NCBI RefSeq assembly: GCF_057098645.1
Contig: NZ_CM169472.1
DNA length: 64,000 bases
Direction: 5' to 3' (one strand)
The position numbers and the translations under genes were made by a program. Below the pieces are notes generated by a model. It made no database searches. It was not told where the DNA came from and saw only the letters and a list, made by a program, of their open reading frames with translations. Shown in pieces: positions 24,564 through 40,046 of this stretch (its first letter is position 1; each line of letters opens with the position of its first letter).

Positions 24564-24962
24564 TCACACGAACGATTTTGCAAAAGAAGGGTCAAATGGC
24601 CCCTCTTTAACTTCCACCATAAGAGCACGCGGAGATAGGCATTCGACACTGTGTATATCGCCCGGAGAAAACTCCACAATGCTTATTCCAATATTATCTC
24701 CTGCTATAAATTGCTTTATAACCTCACCATTTCTACCATACAAACAAACCTGAAGTTGCCCCTCCATAACAATGAACATTTCCCACTGATGAGGAAGTTT
24801 GTGATAATGCGGTTCAACATAGCTGCCCTTTACTAATGCAATAAGTAAACGCTGTACCTTTTCTTGATGCGAGCCGTGCATAATAAGGTGGGAACGTAAA
24901 CGTTCCGATTGCTCGGCTTGATCATATAATTTGTCGAGTTGGTCATTATCAATTAATCGCAT
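24564..24962 (-). CDS. wbuC: WbuC-family cupin protein (function unknown, associated with L-FucNAc O-antigen clusters)
   Basis: 132-aa ORF; position after wbuB at the gnd-proximal end of the fnl module. Confidence 0.7.
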   Translation of the reverse strand: MRLIDNDQLDKLYDQAEQSERLRSHLIMHGSHQEKVQRLLIALVKGSYVEPHYHKLPHQWEMFIVMEGQLQVCLYGRNGEVIKQFIAGDNIGISIVEFSPGDIHSVECLSPRALMVEVKEGPFDPSFAKSFV

Positions 24963-26163
24963 TGCATGCCTCCAACCTCATTTCTATCGTCTGTGCCGCA
25001 GACTCAACGGAGAATTGTTCTTTCAACAATATATTCGCCCCCGAACCAAGTTGCCGGCGCACATCAATATCATGCAACATTAATAGCGCAGATTGACATA
25101 ATTTATCGTCCTCACCATTGACATGGATTAATCCGGCATTATTTTGATTGACAATGTCGAGCAAATCATTTCCGGCATTTACGCTACCTAAAATAGGTAG
25201 CGACTGAACCATATAGCCTAATAACTTACCAGGAAAATTATGGGAAGAGTGTCTAGCGGAAAGAGAAAACAAGCCGATATCCATTTCCGACAAAATGAAC
25301 TTAAATTCATCCTGATTAACCGAGGGCAAATAGGTGAAATTCGTCAATGCCCACTCAGAGGCTAATGAATTAATTAATTCAACTTCATCACCCTGGCCAA
25401 TAAATAGGAAATGAGCTTGAGGATATGCTGCCATGTTTCTCACAAGTCGCATCAAGTTTGTCATGTCCTGTGCATGACCTATGTTTCCACCATAGAAGAA
25501 AATGGTTTTATCCTCTAGGCCAAGTCGCTTACGTAGTGGTATGTAATCCTTGGGTATGATCGTTGGTGTTAGGGATGCCCAATTACGCAAAACTTCGCAC
25601 GGATAGCCTTTATTATCTTTCCGAAAAACATCAAGATTCTTATCAGACATAAGTCCAATACGATTTGCCTGACGATAAGATATTTTTTCAAAAAGACGAA
25701 AGTAGCGTTCTATTGGGGAACCAGCATTAAGGATTCCTGCATCAATTACCCATTGTGGAAACATATCTCTTAAAATAAGATAAGCAGGACATTGGCAACG
25801 AGCTTTAATTTTTTTAACTAAATACCCCCAGAATATGGAAGGTGAATAATAAATCACACCCTCAAAGGTCTCTTTTTTTACCCATTTTTTGATGGCTTTC
25901 CACGCCCGATAGGACAAAAGCGTTTCATTGACCACTCGCTGAATTTTACTTACATCCTTGAGCGGCCCGCTTTTAAAACGCCATGTTTTTACCCCCTGAA
26001 AGGTATCAAAAGAAATCTCTTCTTGCATGCCCGTACCAGGAGTAATTACCGTAACATCGTGCCCACGCTGGATAAATTCTTGAGCAAGTTCATGAAACAT
26101 TTTTGCACCAACACGAGTACTGTTGGGCAGGTAATCATCTATGATTAAAGCAAGTTTCATCAA
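24949..26163 (-). CDS. wbuB: GT4-family glycosyltransferase (putative L-FucNAc transferase WbuB)
   Basis: 404-aa ORF with GT-B fold features; directly downstream of fnlC. Confidence 0.75.
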   Translation of the reverse strand: MMKLALIIDDYLPNSTRVGAKMFHELAQEFIQRGHDVTVITPGTGMQEEISFDTFQGVKTWRFKSGPLKDVSKIQRVVNETLLSYRAWKAIKKWVKKETFEGVIYYSPSIFWGYLVKKIKARCQCPAYLILRDMFPQWVIDAGILNAGSPIERYFRLFEKISYRQANRIGLMSDKNLDVFRKDNKGYPCEVLRNWASLTPTIIPKDYIPLRKRLGLEDKTIFFYGGNIGHAQDMTNLMRLVRNMAAYPQAHFLFIGQGDEVELINSLASEWALTNFTYLPSVNQDEFKFILSEMDIGLFSLSARHSSHNFPGKLLGYMVQSLPILGSVNAGNDLLDIVNQNNAGLIHVNGEDDKLCQSALLMLHDIDVRRQLGSGANILLKEQFSVESAAQTIEMRLEACNAIN

Positions 26164-27290
26164 TATTCTTTCCAGACAACTCTCTTAACATAATCTGTGT
26201 AAGAGTGAACAATTCTGACAACTTTATCCGACACATTTGGCATGCTGTAATCACTAACCTGACGTAAAAGACGGACTTCACCTCGCGGTTGTGTTGCCAG
26301 AATATCCAGCGCTTGTAATACGCGTTCACACTCTAACCCCACCATCATGACGGATGCTTCCTCAAAGCCTTCCGGACGCTCATGCGCTTCCCGGATGTTT
26401 ACCGCTGGGAAATTCATGATGGATGACTCTTCAGTGATAGTACCGCTATCTGAAAGCACAGCTCGTGAGTTCTTCTGCAAGTGGTTATAATCATGGAAAC
26501 CCAATGGTTTCAGTAGATTTATATTTGAATGAAATTCAATTCCTTGCTCACGGATTCGGTTACGTGTCCTTGGGTGTGTGGAGACAATAACTGGAAGATT
26601 ATATTTTTCAGCAACAGTATTTAGAATGTTCGCAAGCTTTACGAGCTGTTTTGGAGAATCAACATTCTCTTCACGATGCGCACTTACTACAAAAAACTCA
26701 CCAGACTGTAGATTCAAACGCGATAGCACATCTGAACCATCAATTTGGGGCATATAATATGAAAGAACCTCAAACATAGGGCTACCAGTTTTTATAATCC
26801 GATCAGCTGGGATACCTTCAGCCAAGAGATATTCACGAGCAATATCACTGTAGGTCATATTGATATCAGCCGTATGGTCAACAATACGTCTGTTGGTTTC
26901 TTCAGGCACGCGTTGATCGAAACAACGGTTACCTGCTTCCATATGAAATATAGGAACTTTATGGCGTTTGGCCGGAATGGCAGAAATACATGAATTCGTA
27001 TCGCCCAATACCAGTATTGCTTCAGGTTTTTCGATTTCTAATACTTCATCTACCTTAATAATAACTTGGCCAATGGTTTCCGCCGCATTTTTTCCCGCTG
27101 CATTTAAAAAATAATCAGGTTTTCGAACACCCAAGTCATTGAAGAATACTTCATTTAATTCGTAATCATAATTTTGACCAGTATGGACAATAATATGCTC
27201 GCAGTATTCATCAAACTTAGCAAGAACCCTCGACAAACGGATAATCTCAGGACGGGTTCCAACAACAGACATAACTTTTAATTTTTTCAT
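26160..27290 (-). CDS. fnlC: UDP-N-acetylglucosamine 2-epimerase (FnlC/Cap5G type)
   Basis: 376-aa ORF with non-hydrolysing UDP-GlcNAc 2-epimerase sequence (MSVVGTRPEIIRLS, HTGQNYD, HMEAGNR). Confidence 0.85.
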   Translation of the reverse strand: MKKLKVMSVVGTRPEIIRLSRVLAKFDEYCEHIIVHTGQNYDYELNEVFFNDLGVRKPDYFLNAAGKNAAETIGQVIIKVDEVLEIEKPEAILVLGDTNSCISAIPAKRHKVPIFHMEAGNRCFDQRVPEETNRRIVDHTADINMTYSDIAREYLLAEGIPADRIIKTGSPMFEVLSYYMPQIDGSDVLSRLNLQSGEFFVVSAHREENVDSPKQLVKLANILNTVAEKYNLPVIVSTHPRTRNRIREQGIEFHSNINLLKPLGFHDYNHLQKNSRAVLSDSGTITEESSIMNFPAVNIREAHERPEGFEEASVMMVGLECERVLQALDILATQPRGEVRLLRQVSDYSMPNVSDKVVRIVHSYTDYVKRVVWKEY

Positions 27291-39294: not shown

Positions 39295-39921
39295 TCACCT
39301 TGCTCTAATAAACTTTGTAGGAGCCCCGGCCACTACTACATTGTCAGGAACATCACGAATAACTACAGAACCAGAACCAATAATTGATGAATTACCTATC
39401 TTTAGTTGCCCATTAACAACGGTACAACTTCCTATAAAGGATTTTTCCCCAACGAATACATCACCATTAAGAACAACATTAGTAGAGATATTTGTACAAT
39501 ATGATATATAATTCCCATGCTCTACTAATGCTCTTGTGTTTATCACCACTCCATCTTCTAGTTCTGAATCACAGTTAATGATAGCCATTTTCCCTATATA
39601 AATGCAGGTACCAAGCCTAGAATGTTCAGAAATTATAGATGTTCTGTCAATTACATTGATAGTTGAAAGTTTCATTTCTTCTATTAACTTCATCCATAAG
39701 GCTCTGTAATCGGGATCTCCAATTGCAATAAAGTATAGGTATTGGTTAGGTTCGTCTATGACACCTAAAGTATCACCTAAAATAGGGTATCCTTGATGCT
39801 CACCTGTTTTAAATGTATCAATGAACCCTTCTATTTCATACTTTTCATGATCCAAACTGTCAATTACAGTTTTAGCAAAACCACCAGCACCAATAATTAT
39901 TAATTTTTGCTTCATATTCAT
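39295..39921 (-). CDS. neuD: Hexapeptide-repeat acetyltransferase, NeuD family
   Basis: 208-aa ORF with N-terminal Rossmann-like IIGAGGFAK and C-terminal left-handed beta-helix repeats. Confidence 0.8.
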   Translation of the reverse strand: MNMKQKLIIIGAGGFAKTVIDSLDHEKYEIEGFIDTFKTGEHQGYPILGDTLGVIDEPNQYLYFIAIGDPDYRALWMKLIEEMKLSTINVIDRTSIISEHSRLGTCIYIGKMAIINCDSELEDGVVINTRALVEHGNYISYCTNISTNVVLNGDVFVGEKSFIGSCTVVNGQLKIGNSSIIGSGSVVIRDVPDNVVVAGAPTKFIRAR

Positions 39922-40006
39922 ACCATCTAATGGTTTGATTAGATCACATTAACTTTGTTGTTACTTGTATTCATGACAACGATAATACATAAATATCTCA
40001 AAAACA

Positions 40007-40046
40007 CACGCTACCGCCCCTGGCTTTACAGCAACCAGAGCACTAT
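40007..40046 (-). promoter_or_regulatory. JUMPstart element with ops site (RfaH-dependent antitermination)
   Basis: Minus-strand sequence tagtgctctggttgctgtaaagccaggggcggtagcgtg; ggcggtagcgtg is the ops consensus; lies between galF and the first O-antigen gene. Confidence 0.85.

Follow-up and report, generated by a model that had tools for sequence, protein, structure and literature searches.

The O145 O-antigen gene cluster in the chromosome of an O145:H28-type Escherichia coli and its putative sialyltransferase Orf7

The locus described here is almost certainly the O145 O-antigen gene cluster on the chromosome of an E. coli of O145:H28 type, a single RfaH-dependent operon making a Wzx/Wzy-dependent repeat of Neu5Ac, L-FucNAm and GlcNAc. 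It lies within a stretch of 64,000 nucleotides, the whole of which we call the window, as 15 head-to-tail open reading frames on the minus strand (24564-39921 in the ORF listing), flanked by gnd and galF. The identification is correct but ordinary, the cluster having been known since 2005, when it was reportedly described by Feng et al. (J Bacteriol 187:758). The part worth more work is orf7, which we take to be wbuW in the published nomenclature and whose product is most likely the sialyltransferase of the O145 cluster, of a family that has neither a Pfam nor an NCBIfam model; the rest of the locus is already known. The features are as follows, the cluster genes being given in the direction of transcription.

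galF, 40246-41139: flank of the cluster
JUMPstart, 40007-40045, minus strand: Rfam RF01707, 52.6 bits against a gathering threshold of 35, E 1.4e-09
ops octamer GGCGGTAG, 40011-40018: inside JUMPstart, sole copy in the window
neuD (nnaD), 39295..39915, minus strand: NeuD-family hexapeptide sugar acetyltransferase; TIGR03570, 188.5 bits, cut-off 160.8
neuB (nnaB), 38246..39286, minus strand: N-acetylneuraminate synthase; TIGR03569, 467 bits, cut-off 399.65
neuA (nnaC), 36977..38242, minus strand: bifunctional CMP-Neu5Ac synthetase with a C-terminal GDSL/SGNH esterase domain
neuC (nnaA), 35802..36980, minus strand: hydrolysing UDP-GlcNAc 2-epimerase yielding ManNAc; TIGR03568, 445 bits, cut-off 235.9
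wzx, 34432..35670, minus strand: O145-specific O-unit flippase with multiple hydrophobic segments; Pfam Polysacc_synt (PF01943), 1.2e-09
wzy, 33237..34424, minus strand: O145-specific O-antigen polymerase with many hydrophobic segments (polytopic); weak Wzy_C match, 0.0048
orf7, 31978..33234, minus strand: 418 aa, one N-terminal hydrophobic helix, then a GT-B fold; putative CMP-Neu5Ac:L-FucNAm sialyltransferase
wbuX, 30846..31988, minus strand: N-acetyl sugar amidotransferase, PP-loop type; TIGR03573, 280 bits, cut-off 203.2
wbuY, 30235..30849, minus strand: HisH-like glutamine amidotransferase subunit, ammonia donor; TIGR01855, 213 bits, cut-off 105.4
wbuZ, 29439..30230, minus strand: HisF-like (AglZ/HisF2) acetamidino-modification protein; NF038364, 372.8 bits, cut-off 310
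fnlA, 28416..29429, minus strand: UDP-GlcNAc 4,6-dehydratase/5-epimerase; TIGR04130, 757 bits, cut-off 730
fnlB (wbjC-type), 27290..28393, minus strand: UDP-2-acetamido-2,6-dideoxy-beta-L-arabino-hexul-4-ose reductase; NF047837, 561 bits, cut-off 500
fnlC, 26160..27290, minus strand: non-hydrolysing 2-epimerase completing UDP-L-FucNAc; TIGR00236 (WecB-type), 221.7 bits, cut-off 210.15
wbuB, 24949..26160, minus strand: GT4 L-FucNAc/L-FucNAm alpha-1,3 transferase onto GlcNAc-PP-Und; GT4 in RefSeq
wbuC, 24564..24962, minus strand: WbuC-family cupin protein; TIGR04366, 141.5 bits, cut-off 42
gnd, 23040-24446: flank of the cluster
wzzB, 20504-21481: near the cluster (RefSeq annotation)

A sequence-only reading of the window had proposed a co-directional block of 15 genes between gnd and galF, in the order neuD-neuB-neuA-neuC-wzx-wzy-orf7-wbuX-wbuY-wbuZ-fnlA-fnlB-fnlC-wbuB-wbuC and preceded by a JUMPstart/ops element, and the open reading frames and the Rfam match agree with it; the end that it gave, 40046, is one base past the 5' end of JUMPstart. 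Its gene names stand too, apart from the gene it had left as unknown, our orf7, which encodes a modelled glycosyltransferase-fold protein. In RefSeq coordinates, several start codons lie downstream of the longest-ORF starts. Family membership was established for 12 of the 15 cluster proteins, and curated NCBIfam cut-offs are exceeded by NeuD, NeuB, NeuC, WbuX, WbuY, WbuZ, FnlA, FnlB, FnlC and WbuC. The JUMPstart/ops element provides RfaH with its loading site ahead of the operon; taken together with wzx, wzy and a nearby wzz, it marks a Wzx/Wzy-dependent, RfaH-regulated operon.

The suspected O145-type identity was borne out by a sequence search, in which the cluster was found at 99.9% identity and 100% coverage (15,483 bases) in 37 of 5,426 complete E. 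coli genomes, always chromosomal and single-copy, and many of these genomes are named O145 or O145:H28. The E. coli O145 reference cluster (RM9872, RM13514, RM13516) has the same 15 genes, order, galF-gnd site and JUMPstart. The alignment with strain RM9872 is collinear, with eight substitutions, no indels and all 15 open reading frames intact; no exact copy of the cluster occurs among the complete E. coli genomes. Three of these eight point differences are nonsynonymous and give the residue changes specific to the window, Wzx Y379C, NeuC G377D and NeuA P19R. The wzx gene carries two further, synonymous changes and wzy a single synonymous one, and both alleles are 99.9% identical to those that RefSeq names 'O145 family O-antigen flippase' and 'O145 family O-antigen polymerase'. 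As judged from the backbone, which is 99.94-99.98% identical to RM13516/RM12761, the chromosome is of the RM13516/RM12761 type within O145:H28, and an IS1 in the flanking wcaM is shared with RM13516 and RM12761 only.

The claim that the cluster is more AT-rich than its flanks was confirmed, its GC being 34.4% (0.344) against 51-53% around it (0.511 in window 1-20400, 0.528 in the right flank). Within the cluster, GC is uneven: 0.37-0.41 in fnl/wbuB/wbuC, 0.35-0.39 in wbuXYZ, 0.29-0.30 in orf7/wzy/wzx and 0.30-0.34 in the neu genes. The same cluster is carried by E. coli strains of unrelated background, 4.6-5.7 Mb in size and from dog, duck, sheep, cattle and human. This spread, the GC deficit of 17-18 points and the sharing of modules with other clusters support a horizontal, mosaic origin; horizontal acquisition had been suggested from the sequence.

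One partner in this sharing is E. coli O118/O151, whose cluster is 92% identical to the 3' 7.2 kb of the present one and has wbuX-wbuY-wbuZ-fnlA-fnlB-fnlC-wbuB-wbuC in common with it (proteins 84-99% identical, WbuB 99%), as well as L-FucNAm-alpha1,3-GlcNAc. However, O118/O151 has no neu module, no orf7 homologue and its own wzx and wzy; it carries instead genes for a GT4 transferase, a protein of the LicD family and a cytidylyltransferase/SDR fusion, in keeping with its ribitol-phosphate unit. Other serogroups share the fnl-wbuBC part at about 94.6% identity. At the other end, neuD-neuB-neuA shows about 75% DNA identity to E. coli O104 (K9-type), where neuD-neuB-neuA-neuC is also directly downstream of galF and JUMPstart (proteins 56-81% identical); O104 differs in having no FucNAm module and in its sialyltransferase WbwA, a recognised GT52 enzyme of 316 aa. 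The gene order of O145 recurs in clusters of Citrobacter portucalensis (likewise between galF and gnd), Salmonella enterica (O48-type and arizonae/diarizonae) and Photorhabdus thracensis. For the sugar-pathway proteins, identity to O145 is 76-97% in Citrobacter and 51-81% in Photorhabdus, and Salmonella has orf7 homologues of 60% identity. In Citrobacter, by contrast, the genes for processing and linkage have diverged (wzx 60%, orf7 43%, wzy similarity not detectable), which suggests that the two clusters may use the same sugars in different linkages.

A further counterpart is found in P. aeruginosa O12 (PA7), where homologues of wbuX (lfnA)-wbuY-wbuZ-fnlABC are directly preceded by an orf7 homologue, 29% identical across residues 4-405, which itself follows a nonulosonic-acid module. 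Unlike that of O145, this module is of the Leg type; genus and initiating sugar differ as well. We take the nonulosonic sugar of O12 to be 8-epilegionaminic acid. PA7 is assigned to serotype O12 (PMC2809737).

All four enzymes of a CMP-Neu5Ac module, of the Neu and not the Pse or Leg type, are encoded in the cluster. NeuA comprises a CTP_transf_3 domain (residues 6-193, 2e-33) and a Lipase_GDSL_2 domain (residues 272-410, 1.6e-10), and shares 56% identity with NeuA of O104 and 85% with that of Citrobacter. The sequence-only reading had raised O-acetylation of the Neu5Ac as a possibility; this esterase domain and the NeuD acetyltransferase, which bear on it, are standard in the module, both being present in the O104, Citrobacter and Photorhabdus versions examined. 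NeuC would convert UDP-GlcNAc to ManNAc, which NeuB would condense with PEP to Neu5Ac, and the N-terminal domain of NeuA would then yield CMP-Neu5Ac. NeuD would add O-acetyl groups to the free or activated sugar, and the NeuA esterase domain would remove them.

The UDP-L-FucNAc pathway is represented by FnlA, FnlB and FnlC, each above its equivalog cut-off, and the acetamidino-sugar module is complete, the WbuX amidotransferase being accompanied by HisH-like and HisF-like partners. Going by its title, a paper by King et al. (2008) reports that FucNAm expression depends on wbuX of O145. FnlA, FnlB and FnlC would convert UDP-GlcNAc to UDP-L-FucNAc, and WbuX would turn the N-acetyl into an acetamidino group with ammonia delivered through the WbuY/WbuZ pair, acting on either the nucleotide sugar or a lipid-linked sugar; a review describes the UDP-L-FucNAm pathway as 'not based on experimental data' (PMC7685785). 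The O unit anticipated by the sequence-only reading, with Neu5Ac and L-FucNAc or its acetimidoyl derivative, agrees with the published O145 composition of Neu5Ac, L-FucNAm and GlcNAc (PMC7685785; PMC9912281): Neu5Ac or its derivatives occur in five E. coli O antigens, O145 among them (PMC7685785), and the N-acetimidoyl group in only three, O118, O145 and O151 (PMC9912281).

The biosynthetic steps above and the assembly route that follows draw on established pathway knowledge. RfaH would load at ops and carry transcription across the 15.4-kb AT-rich operon. WecA, encoded elsewhere, would initiate the unit by transferring GlcNAc-P onto undecaprenyl phosphate, WbuB would add L-FucNAc or L-FucNAm in an alpha-1,3 linkage, and Orf7 would presumably add Neu5Ac from CMP-Neu5Ac; the trisaccharide would be flipped by Wzx and polymerised by Wzy, with chain length set by the neighbouring WzzB, and ligated to lipid A-core by WaaL. 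The match of WbuB to a WcaI-family GT model is sub-threshold, and the L-FucNAm-(alpha1->3)-GlcNAc linkage has been assigned to O145 WbuB (PMC7685785).

Orf7 is the only unassigned GT-fold protein in the cluster, for the one unassigned linkage. It is 'hypothetical' or 'uncharacterized' in RefSeq and UniProt, and has no sequence match in Pfam (even at E<=10), NCBIfam or the PDB. Its structure model is a confident membrane-anchored GT-B, two-Rossmann fold; among its structural neighbours are a polysialyltransferase and proteins annotated as GT52, such fold matches being generic for GT-B. The HP motif described for bacterial GT-B sialyltransferases (PMC5420450, PMC2169525) is found at H342-P343, invariant in all 19 aligned homologues and followed by an invariant S376-T377; the alignment has no conserved acidic-acidic-Gly triplet (canonical D/E-D/E-G), the nearest invariant features being D216-R217 and Q237-H238-G239. 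None of the sialyltransferase profiles PF07388, PF07922 and PF11477 gave a significant match, the best being PF07388 with one of the 19 homologues (i-E-value 0.011), and comparison with the GT52 enzyme WbwA of O104 gave an hhalign probability of 1.4%. As there is no significant match to a family profile, Orf7 is not filed in GT38, GT52 or GT80. Its genomic context is consistent with the proposed role: a NeuB homologue lies within 10 kb of the orf7 homologue in 20 of 21 genome loci, one of which is the P. aeruginosa O12 locus.

An alternative is that Orf7 serves the acetamidino (WbuXYZ) machinery as an accessory protein or membrane scaffold, and that sialic acid is added by an enzyme whose gene lies elsewhere than in the cluster. 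The lack of a significant sequence match to any known sialyltransferase family would allow for this, as would the position of orf7 homologues immediately upstream of wbuX in most loci examined (overlapping it here) and the presence of WbuX in 18 of the 21 loci. We nevertheless consider it unlikely, given the complete modelled GT-B fold with its invariant HP motif, and two kinds of locus in which the genes part company: O118/O151 has L-FucNAm and the same wbuX to wbuC genes, yet a GT4 gene at the orf7 position (PMC7685785; PMC9912281), and in Mesorhizobium loti and one MAG orf7 homologues accompany Leg-type genes where wbuXYZ and fnlABC are absent.

Legionaminic and pseudaminic acid pathways also use NeuB, NeuC and NeuA homologues, many orf7-family loci carry Leg-type modules, and the top NCBIfam match of NeuA is PseF, below threshold, so that the product might be one of these acids and the host-mimicking reading wrong. 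This is extremely improbable. The cluster has no aminotransferase gene among its open reading frames, and no dehydratase of a dedicated LegB or PseB kind; the one 4,6-dehydratase present, FnlA (757 bits on its own model), reaches 328 on PseB, below the cut-off of 407.75. Because an aminotransferase is missing and NeuB is above the NeuB cut-off and below that of PseI (280 against 340), the nonulosonic acid is taken to be Neu5Ac, in line with the literature on O145 (PMC7685785). Function of the operon in this strain is an assumption. That the cluster is present but inactive, giving rough or altered LPS through strain-specific substitutions or polar effects, we regard as very unlikely: the three residue changes set it apart from all close relatives, and IS1 in wcaM shows that insertion elements have been active nearby, but every reading frame is intact, NeuC G377D is outside the conserved domain (residues 3-367), and IS1 sits on the upstream side of galF, beyond the operon. 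The arginine at position 19 of NeuA is presumably also the residue of E. coli K1 NeuA, which likewise counts against inactivity.

Serogroup O145, which this cluster defines, belongs to the 'big six' of non-O157 Shiga-toxin-producing E. coli. The wzx and wzy of the cluster are already in use for diagnostic PCR, and its identification adds only the typing of the source strain, O145 with an RM13516-like backbone. Orf7, as the putative sialyltransferase, reaches further. Its family numbers about 720 clusters at 50% identity, the proteins combining an N-terminal membrane helix with a GT-B fold, and we lean towards the view that it may typify a widespread nonulosonic-acid transferase family, GT-B only remotely like GT52 or GT38, which transfers Neu5Ac (in other bacteria Leg-type sugars), in most cases to L-FucNAm, and which includes the P. 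aeruginosa O12 enzyme. Knowledge of nonulosonic-acid transferases is scarce (PMC5420450). Hundreds of orf7 relatives adjoin genes for sialic, legionaminic or related acids, and characterisation would name a sizeable unannotated family and could yield a new enzyme for glycoengineering sialylated or Leg-decorated glycans.

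The cluster between gnd and galF is the E. coli O145 O-antigen locus, already known since 2005. In a megablast search of 5,426 complete E. coli genomes with 24564-40046 as the query, 37 matched the cluster over its full length at 99.8-99.9% identity, always on the chromosome and in single copy. Many of these genomes carry the names O145 or O145:H28, and the RefSeq label of their wzx and wzy genes is 'O145 family'. The sequence-only reading had likened the gene order to that of an O145-type locus, which these matches confirm, and both its observation and its interpretation were judged correct: the co-directional block of 15 genes, the JUMPstart/ops element and the position between gnd and galF were all found where it had placed them.

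Features of the locus (window positions)
23040-24446: gnd, downstream of the cluster and followed by ugd, wzzB and the his operon
24564-39921, minus strand: 15 open reading frames (neuD-neuB-neuA-neuC-wzx-wzy-orf7-wbuX-wbuY-wbuZ-fnlA-fnlB-fnlC-wbuB-wbuC), head-to-tail, separated by short gaps or small overlaps
31978-33234, minus strand: orf7, unnamed gene between wzy and wbuX
35671-35801: neuC-wzx intergenic gap; its sequence was read and held nothing notable
40007-40045: JUMPstart element (Rfam RF01707; 52.6 bits, gathering score 35), in the 330-base galF-neuD spacer
40011-40018: ops octamer GGCGGTAG, within JUMPstart, the sole copy in the window
40145-40161, minus strand: terminator-like hairpin and, after it, a T-run; galF ends about 85 nt before it and JUMPstart lies about 100 nt further on
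40246-41139: galF, upstream of the cluster and followed by the colanic-acid (wca) genes

Judged by its match to the consensus only, the hairpin may separate the O-antigen operon from galF transcription. The AT-richness claimed for the locus is borne out by a GC content of 0.344, as against 0.528 in the right flank and 0.511 in the left (window 1-20400, ending with the his operon). Within the cluster GC is uneven, ranging from 0.37-0.41 in fnlABC, wbuB and wbuC and 0.35-0.39 in wbuXYZ to 0.30-0.34 in the neu genes and 0.29-0.30 in orf7, wzy and wzx, a gradient that fits a cassette put together from modules.

None of the 5,426 complete genomes is identical to the window over the cluster. Compared with the O145 strain RM9872, the cluster shows eight substitutions and no indels, with 15 of 15 frames intact; three substitutions change residues (Wzx Y379C, NeuC G377D and NeuA P19R, at 34535, 35851 and 38187), the remaining five are silent or intergenic, and six of the eight sites also differ from RM13516. 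The surrounding chromosome is 99.94-99.98% identical to the O145:H28 strains RM13516 and RM12761. An IS1 of 768 bp (41422-42189) lies inside the colanic-acid gene wcaM, 108 nt ahead of its stop codon, flanked by a 9-bp target-site duplication, CACCGCATG, at 41413-41421 and 42190-42198. Since the exact junction, at 100% identity, occurs among the complete genomes only in RM13516 and RM12761, the window belongs to their lineage. At its left end, window 1-1390 is IS2 (IS3-family) sequence adjoining a yeeW/CP4-44-like remnant, where RM13516 carries other sequence; the source strain is thus near but not identical to RM13516. The cluster occurs in dog, duck and sheep isolates with genomes of 4.6 Mb as well as in Shiga-toxin-producing strains of 5.4-5.7 Mb, a host range which indicates that the cassette has moved between E. 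coli lineages.

Most of the gene products could be assigned with curated profiles: NeuD, NeuB, NeuC, WbuX, HisH (WbuY), AglZ/HisF2 (WbuZ), FnlA, an FnlB-type reductase, a WecB-type 2-epimerase (FnlC) and WbuC all score above their NCBIfam cut-offs. Wzx matches Pfam Polysacc_synt, and the polytopic membrane protein Wzy matches Wzy_C weakly. In NeuA a cytidylyltransferase domain is followed by a GDSL esterase domain at the C-terminus; this esterase domain, together with NeuD, is also found in the versions of the module examined from O104, Citrobacter and Photorhabdus. In other bacteria (group B Streptococcus, E. coli K1) NeuD and the NeuA esterase have opposing activities. NeuB lies over the Neu5Ac-synthase cut-off and under that for PseI, the sole 4,6-dehydratase scores as FnlA, and the cluster holds no aminotransferase gene; on these grounds its nonulosonic acid is predicted to be Neu5Ac, and Leg and Pse were rejected as products of the neu module. 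The published sugar content agrees with this assignment, O145 being among the five E. coli O antigens that contain Neu5Ac or derivatives (PMC7685785) and one of the three with an N-acetimidoyl group (PMC9912281), and the linkage L-FucNAm-(alpha1->3)-GlcNAc has been assigned to its WbuB (PMC7685785). The Neu5Ac and acetamidino-sugar content predicted from sequence alone is upheld by both profile scores and literature. The Neu5Ac may be O-acetylated, as the sequence-only reading proposed. The UDP-L-FucNAm pathway is, according to a review, 'not based on experimental data' (PMC7685785); King et al. 2008 state in their title that FucNAm expression needs O145 wbuX.

Parts of the locus recur in other clusters. 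The O118/O151 cluster is 92% identical to the 3' 7.2 kb of O145 (wbuX to wbuC), other serogroups (e.g., an O15:H18 strain) share about 94.6% identity over the 3' 4.9 kb (fnlABC-wbuB-wbuC), and O104 about 75% over neuD-neuB-neuA. In Citrobacter portucalensis all 15 genes recur, also between galF and gnd, with sugar-pathway proteins 76-97% identical to those of O145, whereas Wzx is 60% and orf7 43% identical and likeness between the Wzy proteins is not detectable. Photorhabdus thracensis has the O145 gene order without wbuC, and Salmonella enterica has orf7 homologues of 60% identity. Common precursor modules with diverged transferase and processing genes, as these comparisons suggest, are the usual pattern of O-antigen loci.

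The product of orf7 (418 aa) is 'hypothetical' in RefSeq and 'uncharacterized' in UniProt. It matches nothing in Pfam, even at E<=10, or in NCBIfam; a 19-sequence profile finds no PDB chain at E<=10, and Pfam scans of each of 19 homologues gave a single sub-threshold polysialyltransferase match. A full-text literature search for wbuW, its name in the published nomenclature, returned a single, unrelated paper. In an alignment-based AlphaFold2 model, which is confident (pLDDT 88.3, pTM 0.87), the N-terminal region contains a single, strongly hydrophobic helix (centred on residues 57-76), and a two-Rossmann GT-B fold comes after it. D216-R217, Q237-H238-G239, H342-P343 and S376-T377 are invariant in the alignment; the D/E-D/E-G motif does not occur in its canonical form. 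Profile comparison with WbwA, the GT52 sialyltransferase of O104, gave no significant likeness, the single aligned stretch pairing the HP motifs of the two proteins. As profiles placed orf7 in none of GT38, GT52 and GT80, it is filed in none of them; its predicted action would be like theirs.

The family is sizeable. A word-index search found only 24 homologous clusters, whereas in an exhaustive profile search the number of representative clusters, at 50% identity, rose to 721 (E<=1e-30 for 384); among the best 150 of the 721, lengths are mostly 390-455 aa, with a few shorter. Wherever the flanking DNA was long enough to tell, a nonulosonic-acid module adjoins the homologue, of Neu type in Citrobacter and Photorhabdus and of Leg type (aminotransferase, CBS-nucleotidyltransferase, GFO/IDH oxidoreductase) in metagenomes, marine ones among them. 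A total of 21 loci emerged from a scan of 100,044 species genomes; 20 of them have a NeuB homologue within 10 kb (the other is a 4-kb contig), and 18 have WbuX. [quoted passage not shown] The same arrangement occurs in Aeromonas veronii, several Pseudomonas, Nitrincola, Pandoraea and other genomes.

Two loci lack wbuXYZ and fnlABC: that of Mesorhizobium loti LU (L027), with LegC-, NeuB-, NeuC- and NeuD-type genes, and that of a MAG (L017), with nonulosonic-acid (legionaminic-acid-type) genes. The family is thus not limited to FucNAm acceptors. Conversely, O118/O151 has wbuXYZ-fnlABC-wbuBC without orf7. The idea that orf7 is a part of the acetamidino machinery was therefore rejected; in its gene distribution orf7 follows the nonulosonic acid rather than the acetamidino chemistry. 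Four bonds would be needed in O145, three of them supplied by WecA, WbuB and Wzy, and orf7 is the only remaining protein of the cluster with a glycosyltransferase fold; being the sole candidate for the fourth bond, it is quite probably a CMP-Neu5Ac:L-FucNAm sialyltransferase, which we regard as its most likely function.

All together, the O145 cluster itself adds little to what has been known of this locus, and its overall interest is low. The sole lead with some novelty is orf7, a probable sialyltransferase, together with its sizeable unannotated family.
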